Positions 1-60,595 of a stretch of DNA of 64,000 nt are shown piece by piece. This stretch comes from an uncultured archaeon. Its GTDB lineage: Archaea > Asgardarchaeota > Hermodarchaeia > Hermodarchaeales > Hermodarchaeaceae. Numbering within the stretch: position 1 is the stretch's first letter; each line of letters begins with the position of its first letter. The stretch is taken from NCBI GenBank assembly GCA_964347045.1, contig CAYFXC010000002.1, forward strand, positions 116,285-180,284, given 5' to 3'. A program made the position numbers and the translations under genes. The notes beneath the pieces were generated by a model, which saw only the letters and a program-made list of their open reading frames with translations, had not been told where the DNA came from and did not search any database.

Positions 1-136
1 AAAAAAAATCCGCCGGGTCTTCATCGTTCCTTCCCCTCCATTTTGGCACTTCCCGGTCCAAGTTTGTATGGGTGGCATTGGACCTTTTTGGACAACGGAT
101 CCGGAGTTGTTGTCCGGTTACCGTGAAGACCCGGCG
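1..136 (-). ncRNA. Structured 3' element of unit B followed by an oligo-U tract (candidate 3' UTR structure/terminator)
   Basis: Perfect 13-bp inverted repeat CGCCGGGTCTTCA (11-23)/TGAAGACCCGGCG (124-136) encloses hairpins GGTCCAA/TTGGACC (55-84) and GGACAAC/GTTGTCC (90-115). A8 at 1-8 reads U8 on the minus strand. Confidence 0.65.
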
Positions 137-198
137 TCAGTCAGCGTCCAAGGTCCGCGTCCCTGGTGTTGCAATGTCAATACCTGTTGTAAGCGTGA

Positions 199-342
199 TT
201 AGCGTCGTGAAGTGACGATGGCGAAGTTGATTCGATCGCGGGGGGTGCCTTTGGGGTTCTTTGCACCTGTCACAGCGCGTTCTGTGACCGGCATTTTGGG
301 AATGATATTTTTCTTGTGTCCGGTTTCTTTCTTATTGGTCAT
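199..342 (-). CDS. 47-aa basic microprotein B, MTNKKETGHKKNIIPKMPVTERAVTGAKNPKGTPRDRINFAIVTSRR (not in ORF track)
   Basis: Hand translation, ATG 342 to TAA 199. SD GGAAGGTGA 6 nt upstream. Clear homology to the ORF at 698-838. Confidence 0.8.
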   Translation of the reverse strand: MTNKKETGHKKNIIPKMPVTERAVTGAKNPKGTPRDRINFAIVTSRR

Positions 343-402
343 TTTCTATCACCTTCCTGACGATGCAGGTCAAGTGTGTATAACCCTTAGATTGCCTATT
401 AT

Positions 403-484
403 TCGATGGGAGCTTGTCGGTGCAAAAATCCGACAAAATAATGAGAGTTGAACCATCTTTTGCACTAGTTAGTGCAAAATTTAG
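403..484 (-). promoter_or_regulatory. Conserved upstream motif block of unit B, including perfect palindrome TTTTGCACTA-GT-TAGTGCAAAA (458-479)
   Basis: Motifs recur at equivalent spacing upstream of unit A. IR TTGTCGG/CCGACAA (414-436) around loop TGCAAAAAT. Confidence 0.6.
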
Positions 485-519
485 ATTGGTAACGGTTTTA
501 GTTCGAGAAGGGGGTAAAC

Positions 520-700
520 CGGGTCCGCAGAAGCTCCAGGCCAAAGGAGTCAGAAGGGTAGTAGGTCCGTTGCCGGATCGCTGCTACGCCGATCACCCGA
601 CAACGGATGGAGGCGATTGGTGCTTGTGCAGACCCGAGATATTAGGCTGAGAGGAGGACCGGATGGCTTTGTAGTCACCATGGGGATTCCTCACAGTCTA
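520..700 (-). ncRNA. Structured 3' element of unit A
   Basis: Closing stem 520-529/627-636 (minus: CGGGUCUGCA/UGCGGACCCG, one U-G). Inner stem TCCGTTG/CAACGGA (566-607). Stem 643-700 begins at the stop codon. Confidence 0.6.
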
Positions 701-838
701 GCGTCGACTAAGGACCAGCATAACTGCGTACCGAGTGCGTGGTTTTGCAATCGGATGGGGGTTGCGGCAGCCAGCGATAGCTCGTTCAGAAGCCGACATT
801 TCAGCGATTTTCTTGTGTTTATACTTGGATTTGGCCAT
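698..838 (-). CDS. 46-aa basic microprotein A, MAKSKYKHKKIAEMSASERAIAGCRNPHPIAKPRTRYAVMLVLSRR
   Basis: C-terminal part of track ORF 698..1000. ATG 838 has SD GGAGGGA 7 nt upstream. Homologous to 199-342. Confidence 0.8.
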   Translation of the reverse strand: MAKSKYKHKKIAEMSASERAIAGCRNPHPIAKPRTRYAVMLVLSRR

Positions 839-924
839 TCTCAAATCCCTCCAATTGTGTTGTCTCCGGGATTCCCGGGGAGAAACCCCGTTGCATGTGA
901 AAGAAGGCGGCCGTTTGATAAGAA

Positions 925-1007
925 TCGATGGGAGCCAAGAAGTGCAAATCTTCTCGAAAGAAACCTGTGAAAGATAGTTTTTTTGAACCACATTATGCAA
1001 AATTTAG
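925..1007 (-). promoter_or_regulatory. Conserved upstream motif block of unit A
   Basis: TCGATGGGAGC (925-935), IR AGAAG/CTTCT around TGCAAAT (938-954), TGCAAAATTTAG (996-1007). Confidence 0.6.
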
Positions 1008-1136
1008 CTTTAAATTAGGAAGTTTTCCGTTTGGGTTGATTTTCACTATCAGAGTTTGTGAATAAGTTTTCTTAAGATTTTTTTGGGGTGTTCTGCGAAG
1101 GCTTTTGTGAACTCGGTTATAGTGTAACCTGGTGAG

Positions 1137-28279: not shown

Positions 28280-29677
28280 ATGGCAATTGCTTCTGAGGAG
28301 TTCCTAGATAGGGTGGAAAACCGTATTCTGAACCGTTTGGTTCCCCAGGAAAGGAGTCCTGTTAGGAGCCTGTTACAGAATGTGATAATTCTAATTAAAC
28401 GTGTTAGGGGCCAACAACTAAGTGAGGATGAAAGAGTATATCCACTACATCCTCTTTTAGCTGTTATCGGTCAAAAAGCAGGAGAGATGACGCTACAAAC
28501 CCTTCTTTATCGATTACATCTAGTTGACAGATATGAATTTAATAAATCAAAGGATATTATTAGTGTTCTAACTCGAAAAATTCCCATTGGAATTAACGAA
28601 TCATTATCAGCTCGCAAAGCCCAAATTCTTTGGCATTTATTCCAAAATCCTTCACTCCCCAAATATCAATTAGCCAAGGAACTAGGCACAACACCACGCA
28701 CCATATCAAAAGAATTAACTGAATTGCATCAGGATTTGGCGTTTAACATTTGGACAACGCTTGATGCTCATAAATTCCATTTTGTTGTGAAAACCATTAT
28801 ATTCAGAACACGATCAATAGAACACACAAAACGGCTGGAGAATTTCATTTCTAAAGGACAAGGATTTCTCCGCACATTTCATCTTGATCAAGATATACGA
28901 AGCGGTGAAATTGTTTATCGATATCCTGATCAACCAGAAGCCCATAAGATGTTTAAAGAGCGATATCGTTGGCTTCAAGATGAGTTCTTTATCGAATCTC
29001 ATTTAGTTCAAATTCTTGGGTTATTCCAATCGATTTCGCTTGAGACATATAATCCAGCAACGAATTCCTTTTCAATTGAACCGGAAATAGTCTCAGAAGC
29101 ACCGTTCGGCTACTTTAAAGGGCATCTTGATACACTCCCCCAACCTCAGGGAATAGACTACACACAACCATTTAGGTTCGACAAAGCAGATTTTCTTTTA
29201 GCTGATACCCTATATTCATCTGGACCTTTTAGGAAATCCGATTACAAACGAAATCTTTTGAACCGACATGGTATCAACTACTCAATGAAAACAGTCTGGA
29301 AGAAAGAACAACGACTTCGAAGAGAGAATGCCGCAATTCCAATGATTGATCTACAAATTCCAGGTTTTGACGAAGATTTACTCTTTGTTGTGTTTTGTAC
29401 ACCAGACGCAACTAAGTCGATTCATGCGATCTCAGCATTTCTTCCATTTGTTATGACTTTTAACACAGATTCAGGCTGTTTTTTGAGAATCCAACGTCCA
29501 ATTCATACATCTACTCTTACGGGACAGCTGATTCGTAAAATCAATCATCAAAAAGGAGTTTTTGATGTAAAATTGCTTCGTTTTCAATGGAGAATCCAGA
29601 TGCCGATATTACCGAAAATTGTTGATTGCTGGAATATCGAGGAACAGAAATGGTTGATACAGGAAGACGCCATTTGA
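28280..29677 (+). CDS. Large double wHTH/Lrp-like DNA-binding protein, paralog 1
   Basis: HTH QLAKELGTTPRTISKELTEL. Second HTH-like segment. Internal duplication. Homologous to 29699 and 34817 ORFs. Confidence 0.75.
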   Translation: MAIASEEFLDRVENRILNRLVPQERSPVRSLLQNVIILIKRVRGQQLSEDERVYPLHPLLAVIGQKAGEMTLQTLLYRLHLVDRYEFNKSKDIISVLTRKIPIGINESLSARKAQILWHLFQNPSLPKYQLAKELGTTPRTISKELTELHQDLAFNIWTTLDAHKFHFVVKTIIFRTRSIEHTKRLENFISKGQGFLRTFHLDQDIRSGEIVYRYPDQPEAHKMFKERYRWLQDEFFIESHLVQILGLFQSISLETYNPATNSFSIEPEIVSEAPFGYFKGHLDTLPQPQGIDYTQPFRFDKADFLLADTLYSSGPFRKSDYKRNLLNRHGINYSMKTVWKKEQRLRRENAAIPMIDLQIPGFDEDLLFVVFCTPDATKSIHAISAFLPFVMTFNTDSGCFLRIQRPIHTSTLTGQLIRKINHQKGVFDVKLLRFQWRIQMPILPKIVDCWNIEEQKWLIQEDAI

Positions 29678-29698
29678 GCTATGGAGGAAGGTCAAATA

Positions 29699-31120
29699 AT
29701 GACACGCGGGAAAAGACAGCTCAAACAAAAAGAGGATATCACTCAAGAGTTTATTGAACGTATCATTACCCGTTCTAGACCAGAAGACGATCACGAGGAA
29801 CTGCGGATTTTTCTTACTAATGTGCGTCTATTCATTAAGCGTGTTGAAGGTTTCGATTTAACTGAGGATGAAAAAGAATATCCGCCTCATTCACAATTCA
29901 CACATCATACCTTGAGGAAGGGACGAAGTACAGCGGACGGTTTGAAGTATCGATTGAGAACAATTGACCGATACAAGATAACCAACGTCCAACAAATAAT
30001 CAACATAATAGCATCAACCGCGGTTTCAAGTCCAAAAGGAAAATTAACTCTCCGACAGATACAGATAATCCAAGAACTACACAAAAACCCCCTATTACCT
30101 CAATACGAACTCGTACAGCGACTCTCTACAACTTCCTCAATCATTCGGAACGAACTAAAATTTCTTCGGCGACGTTTTTCGATGGGCATAATTAACAATT
30201 TAGATTACAATAAATTCAAGTTAGGACTATTTGAGATTGATTTTCGCACCATGTCCTTAGATGCCTCTGAAAAACTTGAAATGCATTATCGACGAACTCC
30301 ACCTCCATTTCTACGACGGATTAGTTTTGACCATAACTACCGCGATGGTTTCATTCACTATTTAATTCCAGATCAACCTTCGAGCCATCAAAAGCTTGCT
30401 GAACGGATTGCTTGGTTAAACTCAAACTTCTTACAGGAATCGGCTTGTTTTCGAACACATGGTTTTCGAGTTGACTTGTCATTTGAAAATTACAATATTC
30501 CCACCGGAACTTGGATGCTTGATGCAAATACATTTTCAGTCGACATGTTAGAATTCCTATCTCGTCAAAAACGTGATCAACCCCAACCGCGGGAACGTAC
30601 ATACACGAATCCGATTCACTTTGATAGGGTTGACTATATTCTTGCGTCTACCCCCTATCTTTTTGGAGAAAAGCAGCGTATTGAAGTTCGACAAAAGGTG
30701 TTAAAACGCCACGGGTACACAATATCCAAGAAAACGATTTGGAACCGTGAAAAGAAATTACAGCAGGCAGATGTTTTTTATCCGTCAGTTTGGTATGATT
30801 CCCCTGAGTTGGAGGAGCTTGTGAAATTCACTATAAACTGTACAAATAATGCACTCGAAAAGATTTACCGTCTTATTTCCATCCTACCATACACTTATTC
30901 GGTGCCAACGGACGTCGGTGTGACCTTCACGTTCCAACGACCGAGTCGATGTTCTTCGATAACTGGATTATTAACGAAAGCGTTTGACAAAATTGATGGA
31001 GTCTCAAATATTTGGGTGATCCGATATGAGCCTACATTCAGTCCACAGTTGTTTACCCAAGTTGTAGATCGATGGGATGAAAGTCATCAACGTTGGTTAC
31101 TACAAAAAGGCGACATTTAA
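29699..31120 (+). CDS. Large double wHTH/Lrp-like DNA-binding protein, paralog 2
   Basis: HTH ELVQRLSTTSSIIRNELKFL; LDYNKFKL; SKKTIWNREKKL. Confidence 0.75.
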   Translation: MTRGKRQLKQKEDITQEFIERIITRSRPEDDHEELRIFLTNVRLFIKRVEGFDLTEDEKEYPPHSQFTHHTLRKGRSTADGLKYRLRTIDRYKITNVQQIINIIASTAVSSPKGKLTLRQIQIIQELHKNPLLPQYELVQRLSTTSSIIRNELKFLRRRFSMGIINNLDYNKFKLGLFEIDFRTMSLDASEKLEMHYRRTPPPFLRRISFDHNYRDGFIHYLIPDQPSSHQKLAERIAWLNSNFLQESACFRTHGFRVDLSFENYNIPTGTWMLDANTFSVDMLEFLSRQKRDQPQPRERTYTNPIHFDRVDYILASTPYLFGEKQRIEVRQKVLKRHGYTISKKTIWNREKKLQQADVFYPSVWYDSPELEELVKFTINCTNNALEKIYRLISILPYTYSVPTDVGVTFTFQRPSRCSSITGLLTKAFDKIDGVSNIWVIRYEPTFSPQLFTQVVDRWDESHQRWLLQKGDI

Positions 31121-32819: not shown

Positions 32820-32969
32820 GTTCGAGTCGTTCGGGATTCCGTTTTTCCAGCTTAAGAGTTTGCCGACTCGAAAGATGACGCCCGAAGGAAAGCTATAAAG
32901 ACGAGAACCACTGCAGCAATCTTATCATCTAACCAATGCCATTGATCTAATGCTTCGAGTGTGCAAAGT

Positions 32970-33578
32970 ATGCATGATAAATTCATTAAATACCATGTTC
33001 AAAAGGGTCAACTGGTTCGGGTTCCCCGAGACTACGAGAACGAGTTTGGGACAGGAGATGTGTATCTGGTAGATACCGGACCCATCATCTATTCTTGGAT
33101 TGGAAAAAAGTCGTCTCCTGATGATCGGTTCATTGGAGCCATTACCTCTGTTTGGAAAGACCATGATCGAAAGGGAGCTGCGAAACTTGTGACTGTGAAT
33201 GAGGGCGAGGAATCTAAAGAATTCTTGGAGCTCTTCCAGGGAAACATCATAATTACAGAACAAGATACTGAGGGAATTTTGAAACGGATAGCTCTCAAGC
33301 AACGCGACTTTAAGCTCTTCCGGGTCCACATTGAGGGCGAACTGAACATGTATTATGAAGTGGACCGATCTAAAGAATCCCTTACAACGGATGATGTCTT
33401 CCTTTTGGATACCTATAATAAAATCTACATTTGGCGAGGGCGAGAAGCTACAGCCTTCGAACGATGGGAAGCAATGCACATCGCAGAATTGTATGATTCT
33501 CAACGCACGGGGCATCAAGAAATCATCATCGTGGAAGAAGATAGTGAGCCTAAAGAATTCTTCAAGCATCTCAAATGA
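32970..33578 (+). CDS. Two-domain gelsolin-like protein
   Basis: Two repeats: GDVYLVDT..IYSWIG..S...EGEESKEF and DDVFLLDT..IYIWRG..A...EDSEPKEF. Confidence 0.9.
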   Translation: MHDKFIKYHVQKGQLVRVPRDYENEFGTGDVYLVDTGPIIYSWIGKKSSPDDRFIGAITSVWKDHDRKGAAKLVTVNEGEESKEFLELFQGNIIITEQDTEGILKRIALKQRDFKLFRVHIEGELNMYYEVDRSKESLTTDDVFLLDTYNKIYIWRGREATAFERWEAMHIAELYDSQRTGHQEIIIVEEDSEPKEFFKHLK

Positions 33579-33595
33579 GACACATAAAAATTGGT

Positions 33596-33762
33596 GGAGT
33601 TAACCAAGAAGGGGGAAGAAATCCCAGTTTTATAATAATACAGTAGGCCCCAAAGCCCTTCTTGGTCAGTTCCCCGCTGGTCTTTTTCTACCAATTCCTG
33701 ATGGTGCCGGTTTAACCCAGCTGAACTCTGCCCCGATGCAGGCGAGAGACAACGGGGCAGAG
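33596..33762 (-). terminator. Structured trailer between gelsolin and the orphan operon (possibly bidirectional)
   Basis: Perfect stems ACCAAGAAGGG/CCCTTCTTGGT (33603-33666) and CTCTGCCCCG/CGGGGCAGAG (33726-33762). U-rich tract downstream on the minus strand. Confidence 0.6.
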
Positions 33763-33774
33763 CCATATGACTGG

Positions 33775-34122
33775 TTAAGTGGCTTCATCGAGGACTAGGC
33801 TAACAAATTGCCCCAATCGACCGGTGTGCTGGATGGCTTTGATGAGTCGAGCCTCGTGCGACGCTTTTTTGACGAGAAGATGATTCTCGCGGACGACAGC
33901 GAGTTCCGTAAGAAGGTCATAGAGCCGACGTAGTTCCATACGGTCGACTTGCTGAGAAAGGCGTTCCAGGAGGCGGAACACGTCGTTCAGTGCAACCTTC
34001 TCGAGCTGGACAAGGTTGTCCGTGACATTTCGCGACCGCAAATAGGATCGGGCCAAGCGTAAAACTGGGTCGCTTTTGTCTTCTGTCCCTGTGGTCACGG
34101 CAATTCCCCTCAGTGTCGCCAT
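33775..34122 (-). CDS. 115-aa orphan helical protein (MATLRGIAV...LDEAT)
   Basis: ATG 34122 is 1 nt after the upstream TAG and has SD-like GGGGGTG. Amphipathic Leu-rich helices. The track TTG start at 34209 is probably wrong. Confidence 0.65.
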   Translation of the reverse strand: MATLRGIAVTTGTEDKSDPVLRLARSYLRSRNVTDNLVQLEKVALNDVFRLLERLSQQVDRMELRRLYDLLTELAVVRENHLLVKKASHEARLIKAIQHTGRLGQFVSLVLDEAT

Positions 34123-34123
34123 A

Positions 34124-34387
34124 CTAAGCACCCCCAACGCTGGCGACGCTTGAGACTTCGCTACCATTCGGTTCAACGCGGACGCGAACTCCGCTAGGAG
34201 TTGCCTCAACGATGAGCCGACCAGTTAGACCGCAGGTATCCTTGACTAATTCTATTAGCAAGGTACCTATCGCTCCAATTTCTCGGAGGTTTTCACACCC
34301 CGTCTTCGGGGTAATATCGATATCGAATGGATAGGCATCCTTGACGCCAATCATTCGCTGGGTTTCTTCCATCAGTTCTGTAGCCAC
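34124..34387 (-). CDS. 87-aa orphan alpha/beta protein (MATELMEE...SVGGA)
   Basis: GTG 34387 preceded by SD AGGTGG. Protein-like composition. Coupled to the downstream ORF. Confidence 0.65.
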   Translation of the reverse strand: MATELMEETQRMIGVKDAYPFDIDITPKTGCENLREIGAIGTLLIELVKDTCGLTGRLIVEATPSGVRVRVEPNGSEVSSVASVGGA

Positions 34388-34405
34388 TTTTATCTCCACC
34401 TTTCT

Positions 34406-34581
34406 AAACACAACTGGGAAAAACGAGAGAACGTGAAACCGATACTAATGCATTCAAGGGACAACTGAGAAAGCCAAACTCAGATTAGTCGTATGCTAGT
34501 ACGGGAACGGATTCGTCTTGTAGGGGGGATCCATTGTTCGGTTTTCACTTCCGGGCTGTTTTTCCCTTGGCGAGTGTGTTT
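34406..34581 (-). promoter_or_regulatory. Long structured 5' leader with possible 12-aa uORF (MDPPYKTNPFPY, 34496-34534)
   Basis: Nested stems 34406-12/34575-81, 34416-24/34558-66, 34433-42/34538-48 and inner CTGAG/CTCAG. BRE/TATA-like AAAGGGCTACTTAAAG on the minus strand at ~34614-34629. Confidence 0.6.
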
Positions 34582-34816
34582 GCTGGAATCTATTACAATC
34601 AATGGGCACAAGCCTTTAAGTAGCCCTTTATGAAGCGTGTAACGGAGCTGACAAAAAAGCCATTTTAGCCAAAAAAAGCAGCCAAAGCGTAGGATGGACT
34701 TTAAACTCATAAACGAGAATGCATTTTCGCAAACAAGAATTAAGTCATCCTGTTCAAAACAGTAATTTCGTCAAAAGGAAACTTTTTATGCCAGTTTCTT
34801 TCTTTCTGACGATGGT

Positions 34817-36253
34817 GTGGCGCGCGTGGCATCTGCTATCGAAGCATCCGATTTGCTCTCCACCTTGAAACATAACATGCATGAATCCATGCGCCCAAGT
34901 GAAGAACTTTTCCAAATTGAGTGTCTGATAGATAACCTAAGAGTGTTTGCAAAAAGGTCAAGGGGGATTCCTCTTAGTGAAGACGATCACAGGATTCAAC
35001 CTCACCCTGAATTTGATGGAATGACTGTAGTACCTCGCGAAAGAACATACAACTCCCTACTCCGTCGTCTGAAAGTATTACTCCGGTTCAACATAACTTC
35101 TTACGAAAAAGTTTCTCGGGATTTGTTACAGGGACTGGTTTCGGATGAAACTGACCGGCTGACCGGTAGAGAAATTCGACTAATGTCTTTACTTTATCAA
35201 CGCCCAAATACTCCTCAAGCACAAATGGCAAAGGAATTAAAAATAAGCTTGCCCACGATGCGAAAAGACATTCGAACACTTGAAGAAAAAATCGGCCTTC
35301 GTTTTGCTAATCTAGTTGACTGGGGACGTTTCAAGCTACGCCATTATGGTATTTTCTTTATTTCCATGGGAGTTGATGCATCTCGACGCCTTGAAAAAAT
35401 CTTCAATGAAGAGATGTCAACATATCTTACATCGGCTGTGTTTGACACAACATTACTGCGAGGTTTTGTGGGATTTAGACTTCCAGATCAGGGTCGACCA
35501 CTTCAGCTTTTTTATGAGCAGGTTGAAATTTTGAAAGAGAATTTCTTTGAAGTTTGCCAGGTGCATGAGATAAAGCAATATTACCAAGCAATTTGCTTTG
35601 ATCATTTTGACTACGAAACCGGCTCATGGCTCATTGAAGGAGATGTTTCTACCTTAGGTCTTCTGAATTTTGTTCGAGAGAATTGGACTGTTCTTCCGAA
35701 GCCACGAGGATTATCGAACACTTTAGCACGATCATTCGATCAGCTTGACTATTATTTGGCTTCATTTCTGGTAGGCGATGGTCGGGCACAAATGAAAAAA
35801 ATTCAAAATAGGTTGCGTTCCGTGAATATTGATGCTCCTCGAACAACTGTCTCGACCCGGAAGAGCCGACTTTTAAAGGAGAGAACTCTTGAACCCTATT
35901 TTGTATTTGGTACACCACAACTACCGTTTTTCATTACATTTGCAGTCGAATGTGAGCCATATATTGCTGAACAGCTGGCTGTGGGAGTAGCCCAAATGCC
36001 GATGTCATTCGCTACGATATCTAATATTGGTTGCGTTGTAAATGTGAGTGTTCCATCTCGGAATCTTGGTCAAATTCTTAATCTTCTCTCCCTCACTCGC
36101 GAAGAAGAGGCCGTGAATGAGATCTGGCAAATGCAACAATACCGCAATATTGGCTCAGTCGACCCAGCCCAACTTGCTTCTAAGTGGAATGGATCATATT
36201 GGAATTGGTCTGAAGAAGAATTTGCCATTCCGTCGTTGGGTTTGGAGCATTAG
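34817..36253 (+). CDS. Large double wHTH/Lrp-like DNA-binding protein, paralog 3
   Basis: HTH QAQMAKELKISLPTMRKDIRTLEE; VDWGRFKL; PRTTVSTRKSRLLKE. Confidence 0.8.
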   Translation: MARVASAIEASDLLSTLKHNMHESMRPSEELFQIECLIDNLRVFAKRSRGIPLSEDDHRIQPHPEFDGMTVVPRERTYNSLLRRLKVLLRFNITSYEKVSRDLLQGLVSDETDRLTGREIRLMSLLYQRPNTPQAQMAKELKISLPTMRKDIRTLEEKIGLRFANLVDWGRFKLRHYGIFFISMGVDASRRLEKIFNEEMSTYLTSAVFDTTLLRGFVGFRLPDQGRPLQLFYEQVEILKENFFEVCQVHEIKQYYQAICFDHFDYETGSWLIEGDVSTLGLLNFVRENWTVLPKPRGLSNTLARSFDQLDYYLASFLVGDGRAQMKKIQNRLRSVNIDAPRTTVSTRKSRLLKERTLEPYFVFGTPQLPFFITFAVECEPYIAEQLAVGVAQMPMSFATISNIGCVVNVSVPSRNLGQILNLLSLTREEEAVNEIWQMQQYRNIGSVDPAQLASKWNGSYWNWSEEEFAIPSLGLEH

Positions 36254-58399: not shown

Positions 58400-58765
58400 T
58401 CAGTTGTCTTCTGCGATCATTTCAATGATTCTAAAAAGTTCTTTTGCCCGAACGGGCTTCACTTGGAATACTGCCGCACCAGCTTCAATGGCTTCTGAAC
58501 GAACGGTCTCATCTGCACTTACAAAGATAATTTTACTATGAGCGTTGATTTCTTGAATCATTTTCGTAGCGCTTATTCCATCCATGCGTGGCATGCGATG
58601 ATCCATTATTATGACATCTGGCTTAGGATTCATCTTTAGAAAAAGTTGAACTGCTTCGTTACCATCGAAGGCAGAGCCTACTACCTTGTGACCTTTCATC
58701 GTGAAGAGAGCTTTGTAAATTTGGTGAAGGTTTTCTTCGTCATCAACGATGAAGATTGAAGCCAT
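58400..58765 (-). CDS. Stand-alone response regulator receiver
   Basis: IVDDE, MDHRMPRMDG, VSA, KP. Start refined to ATG 58765. Confidence 0.93.
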   Translation of the reverse strand: MASIFIVDDEENLHQIYKALFTMKGHKVVGSAFDGNEAVQLFLKMNPKPDVIIMDHRMPRMDGISATKMIQEINAHSKIIFVSADETVRSEAIEAGAAVFQVKPVRAKELFRIIEMIAEDN

Positions 58766-58979
58766 TGAATGCACTGTCCATTTCACTTTGGTATTTTTTG
58801 GCATACGATGTAGTTTTAGCAGTATATCCCCGCGGCGTTGTCCAGTGAGTTTTGTGTTAAATCCGGTTATGAATTTTGTGTTTGCCCCGTATGTCCTCCG
58901 TATTCTATTTCGGATTTCTGCACTAATTTTTAGAACCAGTGTGCCCATTGATACTCACATCATAAACGATGTGTAACTT

Positions 58980-59123
58980 ATGGCAATTGATCCAATCTAT
59001 AAAATGGAAGTTAATGAAAGAACTGCAAAATTAACTTCCAAGTATAAAAGTAAAACATACTATTTCAGCGCACATAACGGCAAAACCGAATTTGATAGAA
59101 ATCCAGAAAAGTATGCTACCTAG
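58980..59123 (+). CDS. 47-aa YHS-domain protein lacking its cysteines (not in ORF track; may be degenerate)
   Basis: MAIDPIYKMEVNERTAKLTSKYKSKTYYFSAHNGKTEFDRNPEKYAT matches the YHS pattern DPVC.M.V...Y.GKTYYFC...C...F..NPEKY. Confidence 0.8.
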   Translation: MAIDPIYKMEVNERTAKLTSKYKSKTYYFSAHNGKTEFDRNPEKYAT

Positions 59124-59158
59124 TTGAAAATTTCAAAGATAGCCCAGAATTATGCATT

Positions 59159-60595
59159 CTAAGTTTCTTCTATCGGAAGAAAGATACGAAACGCCGCCCC
59201 TTTTCTAGCTGGCATAGAGAGTAGTTCGATTGAACCGCCATAGGCATCAAGGACCCGCTTACTCAGGTTTAAACCCAACCCACTGCCTGTAGTAGTCATA
59301 CCACGCTCGAAGAGTTTGGCTTGAAGGTTTTTAGGGATACCAGGACCATTATCCACGATATCGATTTGAATTTGATTCTCTTTTTGAACGATTCTGACAT
59401 TCACCACTGGTTTGGGCCCCGCATGTTGGGCAGAGTTGCGGAAGAGATTAATAAAAACAAGGGGGAGTAGACGTCCACTCGCAACGTGAATACCTTTAGG
59501 TTTTGGAGGAAAGTCGATCTTGATTGTTAAGTCTTTGTAGGTTTTCATTGCTTGGTTTGCAACCCGTTGAATAAGAGCTTTAATTTCCTTTTCAGCTTCT
59601 TTGTCGGGACGTCCAAAGACATCGAGAAGACGCGCCATGCGATCAGCAGCGGCTCGTGTAGCTTCGATGAACTCGGTAAGTTCAGAATTTTCTGAAAGCA
59701 TCATTTGCGCAACTTCAGTGGTGCTAAATATTACTTGTAAATCATTTCCGAGGTCATGTCGAAGAAGCGAGGCATAAAGTTCGAGGTCTCGGTTGGTATT
59801 TTTCAGTTTAATTTCTGTGAGCTTACGGTCATGAATATCTCGAACAATCGAGTAAAGTGCCACTACTTCACCATTTCGAATGACCTGTTTGCTGCTCACT
59901 TCACCCCAAACTCGCGAACCATCTTTTGCTATAAATGGATATTCTGTTGATGGAACTGAGTCTCCAGCCAATAGTCGCTTCGAATTTTCAAGGGCTTGAG
60001 GAAGTAGCTCAGCAGGAATTAGTCCCAAACTAGGATATAGTTTACCCTTCAATTCGTCAGGATGATAACCTAAATGGTTTTCAACAGATGGGGAGACATC
60101 TAAAATGGTCAGATCTTGGTCTAGATGGAGAAAAACATCAGTGAGATTCTCAAAAAATAGCCGATATCTTTCTTCACTCTCAGCTAAAGCTTCTTGAGCA
60201 TGTTTTCTTTCAGTAATATCTTCAATGGTTCCTTCATGGTGGATAACTTTGCCCTGTGAGTTGCGAACTGCACGACTACTAATGAGAACCCAGATGAGCC
60301 GTTCATCGAGTCTACGAAATTGAGCTTCAAAGCCTACAACTACATCCTTTTGAGCAACCTTGCGTTCCCACTGGCGCCGAACATTAGGATCAACATAAAA
60401 TGAGGATACCCTACGCTTTATGAGCGATTCTTTATCAGGAAACCCCAACATCTTGACAAAGGCTGGATTTGCATCGAGAATTTCTCCAACCCTAGGTTTT
60501 GTACGAAAAAGCCCAATAGGAACCCTTTCGAAAAGCTGGTAATATTCAGCTTCGGCTTCTTTCAATTTAGTGATATCAGTTTTGGTGGTGGGCAT
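59159..60595 (-). CDS. Cytoplasmic PAS-PAS histidine kinase
   Basis: Two PAS/PAC domains, RHDLGN H-box, NLFRNS..H, DNGPGI, GLGL. Confidence 0.93.
   Translation of the reverse strand: MPTTKTDITKLKEAEAEYYQLFERVPIGLFRTKPRVGEILDANPAFVKMLGFPDKESLIKRRVSSFYVDPNVRRQWERKVAQKDVVVGFEAQFRRLDERLIWVLISSRAVRNSQGKVIHHEGTIEDITERKHAQEALAESEERYRLFFENLTDVFLHLDQDLTILDVSPSVENHLGYHPDELKGKLYPSLGLIPAELLPQALENSKRLLAGDSVPSTEYPFIAKDGSRVWGEVSSKQVIRNGEVVALYSIVRDIHDRKLTEIKLKNTNRDLELYASLLRHDLGNDLQVIFSTTEVAQMMLSENSELTEFIEATRAAADRMARLLDVFGRPDKEAEKEIKALIQRVANQAMKTYKDLTIKIDFPPKPKGIHVASGRLLPLVFINLFRNSAQHAGPKPVVNVRIVQKENQIQIDIVDNGPGIPKNLQAKLFERGMTTTGSGLGLNLSKRVLDAYGGSIELLSMPARKGAAFRIFLPIEET

Follow-up and report, generated by a model that had tools for sequence, protein, structure and literature searches.

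A conserved proline-rich micropeptide gene in an unusually folded operon opposite a double-Lrp-like regulator gene of an Asgard archaeon

The stretch of DNA analyzed here in its full length of 64,000 nt (the window; G000:C2:116285-180284) belongs to a 2.58-Mb Asgard genome with a GC content of 42.9%. It contains a minus-strand unit of about 1 kb that is bordered by a convergent gelsolin gene (32961-33578) and by a divergent gene for a 478-aa HTH protein (34817-36253). This locus is an ordinary chromosomal operon, and its mRNA is unusually folded and conserved. As judged from genome searches and synteny, the operon is single-copy and its gene order is constant throughout the class. The features of the locus are the following, in window coordinates.

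34817..36253, plus strand: regulator of 478 aa with an unknown N-domain and two wHTH/Lrp-like modules; Pfam HTH matches at residues 115-158
34768..34812, plus strand: inverted repeat with 14-bp arms (34768-34781 and 34799-34812) just 5' of the regulator start, near-invariant in the genus
34650..34658, minus strand: T-rich promoter-upstream block, invariant in 13 genus genomes
34614..34621, minus strand: TATA-like box about 30 nt 5' of the inferred start, CATATAAAGG in most homologs
34388..34590, minus strand: folded 5' region of about 203 nt, first 21 nt near-invariant; a long stem is predicted to sequester the ribosome-binding site (RBS) of the micro-ORF
34545..34552, minus strand: Shine-Dalgarno (SD) sequence of the micro-ORF, GGAAGTGA, 10 nt 5' of its ATG; 7-8 of 8 positions match GGAGGTGA at 17/17 loci
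34496..34534, minus strand: micro-ORF of 12 aa, MDPPYKTNPFPY, kept in 17/17 class genomes
34124..34387, minus strand: ORF1, 87 aa, beta-alpha-beta-beta core (residues 21-72; AlphaFold pLDDT 67.7), of a family found in several Asgard classes
34115..34147, minus strand: stem that pairs the ORF1 end with the ORF2 start codon and encloses the ORF2 SD; 92% paired, synonymous sites nearly frozen
33775..34122, minus strand: ORF2, 115 aa, helical bundle (pLDDT 75.8), restricted to the class
33779..33784, minus strand: 3' arm of a long-range helix whose partner is the ORF1 start (34387-34382); 98% paired, invariant
33717..33774, minus strand: first 3' hairpin, from the stop codon, with compensatory changes at six adjacent pairs (21 compensatory cells)
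33596..33673, minus strand: second 3' stem, its loop variable in length; a T-run comes after it, and it faces the convergent gelsolin gene; 89% paired

A preliminary description of this DNA had reported two ORFs 1 nt apart, both starting with MAT. The two ORFs and their spacing stand (87 aa, 34387-34124; 115 aa, 34122-33775; minus strand), and the start of ORF1 needs a qualification: as its start codon is GTG, the protein reads MAT only after initiation. A frameshift fusion of ORF1 and ORF2 was rejected; the gap between them varies from 1 to 3 nt, and since it measures 2-3 nt in some homologs, such a fusion is not conserved. The finding of that description did not include a third gene, an SD-led 12-codon ORF located in the leader (34534-34496), and it is this conserved micropeptide gene that is the main content of the locus. 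Transcription of the operon probably starts near position 34590, and a scan for tRNA and tmRNA genes found none.

Given a unit of about 1 kb that is GC-shifted, heavily paired and equipped with small ORFs, the preliminary description had also entertained a captured RNA or ssDNA element, and obelisks are indeed about 1 kb in length, highly paired and endowed with small ORFs (PMC10827157). An obelisk- or viroid-like replicon is nevertheless barely credible as the source of this locus. We are dealing with a single copy of chromosomal DNA that has its own archaeal promoter, keeps the same gene order across the class and is inherited vertically with its neighbors; its predicted fold is branched and not rod-like; a search for viral relatives found none; and ORF1 is part of a cassette that occurs in other Asgard classes. 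Pfam and PDB searches returned no Oblin match.

Contigs of 17 class genomes extend over the leader, and every one of these genomes has the micro-ORF, with 10-14 codons, the same SD, an early proline and an end of the P-x-stop type; across the class genomes, the other two frames at this site run for 0-23 codons. Its SD, frame and proline pattern are retained while the surrounding leader diverges, and the micro-ORF is present as well in metagenome loci that are more distant from this class. The family pattern, M-x(1-2)-P...[DNES]-[P/x]-x-P-[FWY/other]-stop, is matched by only 18 of the 2698 SD-led micro-ORFs of the genome. The middle of the peptide is highly variable between close species, consecutive proline codons are not conserved, and the 12-aa peptide found here possesses neither an export signal nor a hydrophobic stretch. 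The micro-ORF lies 283 nt from the regulator start, in divergent orientation, and the predicted unpaired probability of its RBS is 0.09-0.39 in 18 of 19 homologs. Another intergenic, SD-led ORF of 10 codons with two prolines is located elsewhere in the genome (G000:C1:9195-9227, minus strand).

The claim that the region is GC-rich holds in so far as its GC content of 0.507, against 0.429 for the genome, is reached by just 0.85% of 5033 1-kb windows. Taken alone this value is not diagnostic, because the L22 and S3 ribosomal-protein genes reach 0.48-0.51. The folding of the transcript is more telling. The whole region has a minimum free energy (MFE) of -350.5 kcal/mol and a multi-branched predicted fold, both in the MFE and in the consensus structure. 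Against codon-preserving shuffles, ORF1 and ORF2 together yield a z-score of -3.73 here and of -1.6 to -4.8 in 13 species of the genus, compared with a background of 58 random genes with a mean of -0.35 (sd 1.11) and one gene at or below -3; leader and trailer of this genome give -2.0 and -3.5. One control gene, G000:C3:34924-36423, has a codon-shuffle z-score of -5.3. Furthermore, the between-species divergence at four-fold sites of ORF1 and ORF2 is 0.22-0.23 as opposed to a median of 0.67, the lowest and second-lowest values among the 198 genes sampled. An overlapping frame was rejected as the reason for this synonymous constraint, as every alternative frame has stops in 13/13 species. Recent transfer is an unlikely cause of it, given a diverged leader and amino-acid identities in the ordinary range (0.82-0.87). 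Folding beyond codon shuffles, low four-fold divergence and the lack of an open alternative frame therefore argue for selection on the RNA sequence itself, and they lend support to the earlier proposal of a structured coding RNA or very stable mRNA. Selection at the mRNA level exceeds that on any other gene sampled, ribosomal-protein genes included, making this transcript a good target for structure probing.

These data bear directly on the simplest conceivable reading, according to which the locus is a highly expressed small-protein operon whose GC content and folding are by-products of codon preference. Ribosomal-protein genes do share its GC content; however, their synonymous sites are near-saturated (0.55-0.63), and the folding z-scores of L22 and S3 are positive (+1.2 and +0.8). 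As the shuffles keep codon usage and the micro-ORF is left unexplained, this reading is largely refuted, and we regard it as very improbable.

Hairpins had been described as running almost continuously through leader, both ORFs and trailer. The stems that were named are present in the sequence, but local hairpins are not continuous, because windows inside ORF2 are near zero; among 150-nt windows of the coding strand, strong folding is confined to 34150-34400 (z -3 to -5) and 33550-33850 (z -2 to -3.5). Across 15 homologs, the named stems fare differently. Those at 33726-33762 (99% paired, 21 compensatory cells) and 33603-33666 (89%, 7 compensatory cells) are well kept, as are CCGTGAC/GTCACGG (91%) and the stem at 34115-34147 (92%). 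The AACTCC/GGAGTT stem is less so (78%), and both AACCTT/AAGGTT (73%), in whose place the consensus pairs AGAAGGTT with GACCTTCT (98%), and ACCCCG/CGGGGT (only 64%) are poorly kept. Covariation supports only the 3' hairpins: in the trailer, 20 changes keep pairing where 11.1 are expected, whereas in the coding region 76 changes at positions paired in this genome (G000) do so against an expectation of 74.5. The helices of the coding region are maintained by invariance, including the stem at the ORF2 start, a candidate translational-coupling hairpin, and the helix that connects the ORF1 start with the ORF2 end. The latter (33779-33784/34387-34382) would close the whole coding region and, being invariant, offers no covariation. 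In the second 3' stem, two species tolerate a 30-nt deletion of the loop. The word TCGCC recurs on the minus strand in the invariant 5' block (34575-34569), at the ORF1 end (34146-34142) and in the loop of the first 3' hairpin (33745-33741), and is possibly a protein site or an alternative partner for the ORF2 start.

Might the 1-kb transcript then have a structural role of its own, as a scaffold or a storage RNP, perhaps with ORF1 or ORF2 bound to it, that freezes its synonymous sites? The exceptionally low four-fold divergence, the long-range helices between the ORF1 start and the ORF2 end, the near-invariant 5' block and the recurrence of a YUCGCC word in leader, ORF1 end and 3' loop all agree with such a dual-function RNA. 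We consider it improbable all the same. The coding region is devoid of an excess of pair-keeping changes, and its paired sites are just marginally more conserved than the unpaired ones (0.24 vs 0.34, p=0.08). No Rfam match was obtained at gathering score (best E 0.44, well short of the cut-offs), and neither protein matches an RNA-binding family. Moreover, the sister genus shows a weaker signal (z -0.7 to -2.8, GC 0.42-0.45); dense folding is hence largely a genus-level feature. The folded 5' region likewise has dinucleotide z-scores of -1.2 to -5.8 in 12 genus-level homologs and behaves inconsistently in the second genus.

The regulator encoded opposite the operon belongs to a family that is present in 104 of 301 Asgard genomes. 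In searches with the family profile, both halves of the protein match structures of the Lrp and MarR types, among them LrpA (1i1g) and the HTH regulators PH0140 and PH0061 (E 2.5e-4 to 6e-3). Pfam and NCBIfam return only HTH/Lrp-like matches and no TPR repeats, with the Lrp-like matches far below the NCBIfam cut-offs. Compared with Lrp/AsnC (feast/famine) proteins such as Pyrococcus LrpA, to which both halves show these weak profile matches, the regulator differs as a 478-aa single chain that combines two modules with an extra N-domain. The suspicion that this wHTH gene is linked to the operon is borne out by synteny in the class and in several Asgard families, and the regulator probably controls the operon. 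The inverted repeat at 34768-34812, one arm of which is retained in the second genus, is a candidate operator or, alternatively, a 5' hairpin.

ORF1 had been called an orphan, incorrectly as it turns out: 18 class genomes have homologs, and a widened profile reaches five other Asgard families, with database names that include Atabeyarchaeum, Baldrarchaeia and Njordarchaeum. Neither ORF1 nor ORF2 could be assigned to a family via Rfam, Pfam, NCBIfam, PDB sequence, Foldseek, VIA or atlas searches, and the resemblance of ORF1 to MinE-like and HATPase-like proteins is weak (E > 0.1). Longer ORF1 homologs show, by eye, the strand-helix-three-strands-helix order of Roadblock/LC7 proteins (PF03259), whereas ORF1 of the window has just four elements. 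None of 49 ORF1-family members matches PF03259 in Pfam, the fold-search lists of the 87-aa model do not contain it, and hhalign comparisons with a shallow 11-sequence profile gave P 0.07 and 0.29. As to a KH domain with its GxxG loop, the ORF1 model shows one continuous helix at residues 34-52, the glycines are lost in distant members, and there is no Pfam KH match. The idea that ORF1 is a copy of the regulator N-domain was rejected (hhalign probability 0.1%), and a predicted complex of regulator and ORF1 (score 0.15, mark 0.32) counts neither for nor against their interaction.

ORF2 is found in 19/19 class genomes, with one weak match outside the class, and fold searches gave no significant match. 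A paralog of it resides in the same genome (G000:C6:52077), and 14/15 genomes of the genus have this paralog. It sits behind a SufR/ArsR-like HTH gene (L001:5411-6449; G000:C6), and because it overlaps the end of this gene, ORF2-type proteins may be partners of HTH regulators, as the arrangement suggests. ORF2 was also compared with the regulator N-domain and rejected as a copy of it (hhalign probability 0.8%). In 3/4 sister-genus genomes, a stand-alone receiver (REC-like) gene lies 3' of ORF2 (L017:1909-2280, L018:1312-1701, L020:1026-1415); a similar receiver gene is located in the window behind a PAS histidine-kinase-like gene (58400-60595).

To trace the arrangement beyond the class, we collected 33 regulator loci and searched the 3837 ORFs from them with an ORF1 profile built from the class only. 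Elsewhere, this profile picks exactly the small genes behind proline-rich micro-ORFs (E 8e-6 to 3e-3), namely at four loci in three other families and, weakly, at a fifth, all of them opposite the regulator. Eight further distinct loci with ORF1 homologs had no part in building the profile, and seven of these have a peptide ORF directly upstream, the exception being L165; four of the seven are confirmed to face the regulator. ORF1 homologs of other families usually face the same double-Lrp-like regulator, and peptide and ORF1 genes are adjacent and co-oriented in every lineage examined, in related genomes that do not count as independent. In other lineages, only a few nt separate the peptide ORF from the ORF1 homolog, or else the peptide comes with a signal-like segment. 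In one family, the motif closes an ORF of 40-42 aa that begins with basic residues, contains a long hydrophobic stretch (L106, L161, L168 and L170) and was judged by eye to be signal-peptide-like. The regulator loci of another family (f6), probably the Thorarchaeota, have one or two micro-ORFs, with peptide genes in tandem at some of them, and a 44-45-aa protein that ends in the proline motif of the micropeptides. This protein appears to start at ATT, ATC or ATA after a perfect SD (L118-L120, L122-L125, L114). The ORF1 profile matched in 0/76 f6 genomes; an 81-109-aa protein of f6 is weakly ORF1-like (P 0.0007-0.0035, probability 9-27%; one further comparison gave nothing), so that its homology to ORF1 is only suggestive.

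Other regulator paralogs have proline-rich micro-ORFs of their own, including distant ones on contig C1 of the same genome (G000:C1), namely the two proteins with 'MYP' micro-ORFs at their sides, which the regulator profile recovers; several paralogs have a peptide and no ORF1 homolog nearby. The paralogs at 28280 and 29681 (L138) have no adjacent peptide. The locus is the version present in this lineage of a conserved Asgard cassette, which can be written as a double-Lrp-like regulator gene, divergent promoters, and then the genes for a proline-rich peptide, an ORF1-family small protein and lineage-specific extras, which are ORF2 here, joined in the sister genus by a response regulator. From this distribution we infer that regulator, peptide and ORF1 may be the oldest unit, to which ORF2 and the dense folding of the RNA seem to have been added later.

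The data show the gene content and gene order, the conservation of the peptide at the protein level and the constraint at the RNA level. The mechanism that we propose is a working model, which we consider plausible and somewhat short of probable: the peptide would be the ligand of the regulator, ORF1 its co-factor, and the folded mRNA a device that stabilizes the message and gates translation. The peptide, or its C-terminal D/N-P-x-P-aromatic end, would be made as a free product and would bind the regulator encoded opposite, thereby altering the hold of the regulator on the shared promoter region and creating feedback on the operon, with ORF1 in the role of a dedicated co-factor. Within this genus, the leader stem would hide the RBS of the peptide, the stem at the ORF1/ORF2 junction would couple ORF2 to ORF1, and the 3' hairpins would protect the mRNA end; as a result, the message would persist for long, and the output of peptide would be low or gated. 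This reading was reached because the same tail occurs as a bare micro-ORF, as the tail of a signal-like segment and as the end of a 45-aa carrier, and in each case this is at a regulator locus. That the motif is also placed on signal-like and 44-45-aa precursors, and that peptide genes occur in tandem, suggests that the peptide product matters beyond the mere passage of ribosomes. Several points count against a ligand role. Lrp-type domains are known to bind amino acids, not peptides; the regulator paralogs at 28280 and 29681, and L165, lack a peptide; there is no export signal here; the middle of the peptide is variable; and the predicted occlusion of the peptide RBS fits a switch in cis as well.

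Such a switch is the main rival. The micro-ORF would then be a cis-acting leader peptide of the MgtL kind, inert as a peptide, and ribosome loading or slow decoding of its prolines would refold the leader and switch translation of ORF1 and ORF2, or transcription. Its proline-rich character, its position within a folded leader of 200 nt and the precedent of MgtL/MgtP (PMC5021804) speak in favor of this; in addition, when the micro-ORF start is held unpaired, the predicted accessibility of the ORF1 RBS falls in 13/19 homologs, in a model that has no null. Yet the predicted effect is reversed in this genome and in one other and is absent in four, runs of consecutive proline codons are not conserved, and two of the four sister-genus genomes that keep the peptide have an unstructured leader. 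Elsewhere, the peptide ORF lies a few nt from the ORF1 homolog or bears a signal-like segment. An attenuator in cis hence agrees with what is seen in this genus and is at odds with the lineages that have no folded leader; we rate it as unlikely overall, if far from negligible. Even as a mere cis leader, the peptide would still represent a rare archaeal example of leader-peptide control. The likeness to the proline-rich leader ORFs of Salmonella, MgtL and MgtP (PMC5021804), is one of layout only, a short proline-rich ORF within a long folded leader that precedes the main genes. It differs in that the C-terminal peptide motif is conserved across classes here and runs of proline codons are not, in that the motif also appears on signal-peptide-like and 45-aa precursors, and in that the folded leader is not universal.

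Alternatively, the target of the peptide might be ORF1 (or ORF2) in place of the regulator, with the two forming an activator/anti-activator pair that acts downstream. The adjacency and common orientation of peptide and ORF1 genes in all lineages examined would be in keeping with this; several regulator paralogs, however, have a peptide and no ORF1 homolog nearby, and we hold a target of this kind to be quite improbable.

Returning to the peptide as a ligand of the regulator, the closest counterparts are the RRNPPA peptide-receptor cassettes of Bacillota and their phages: Rap/Phr, Rgg/SHP, NprR, PlcR/PapR, PrgX and AimR/AimP (PMC12700828). As in these, a tiny peptide gene stands beside the gene for a cytoplasmic HTH regulator, here and in other families, paralogous regulators come with different peptides, and export-tagged forms exist in some lineages. 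The locus may, by analogy, work like an RRNPPA cassette. It is no member of this group, because its putative receptor is not a TPR protein and no export signal is present here: the regulator has Lrp-like modules and no TPR match, and the peptide of this genome lacks a signal sequence, signal-like forms being confined to another family. Further differences are a third small gene (ORF1) within the cassette and the archaeal host.

Asgard archaea are the closest prokaryotic relatives of eukaryotes, and to our knowledge, next to nothing has been learned about their gene regulation and cell-cell signaling. Our search of the literature on Asgard peptides and regulators found no description of a peptide-regulator circuit, and the locus points to an undescribed, putatively peptide-controlled gene circuit. 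Conceivably, and this we consider rather doubtful, it might reflect an Asgard type of peptide signaling unrelated to bacterial RRNPP and two-component systems, in which the peptide would be exported in some lineages and cytoplasmic in others, a single-chain double-Lrp receptor would act together with a small co-factor, and the output would here be stored on, or gated by, a structured mRNA. The components of the locus are few and can be tested directly: the peptide can be made as a synthetic 12-mer, the regulator is one soluble protein, and a candidate operator and the two small proteins complete the set.

Further observations concern relatives of the regulator and other small ORFs. Two tandem regulator paralogs in the window (28280-31120, plus strand) that have no adjacent proline-rich micro-ORF are possible orphan receptors. 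In family f12, a second regulator paralog is followed by a convergent 45-53-aa ORF of signal-peptide-like appearance (L109:1363-1500, L111:1468-1629). At the beginning of the window (1-1010, minus strand; ATGs at 838 and 342), two paralogous basic ORFs of 46-47 aa share the upstream motif GCTCCCATCGA and the trailer motif ATCCGTTGTC. The preliminary description had noticed that an 8-mer of these trailers, CCGTTGTC, recurs in the operon (33748-33755); this copy exists only in the present species and is absent from all 15 homologs, and with the word missing in homologs, the link of CCGUUGUC to the 1-1010 cassette trailers was rejected as chance. Further copies of the 1-1010 ORF are found at G000:C2:110339 and C13:56758, and several sites with ORFs of this type lie near distant profile matches of the double-Lrp regulator.
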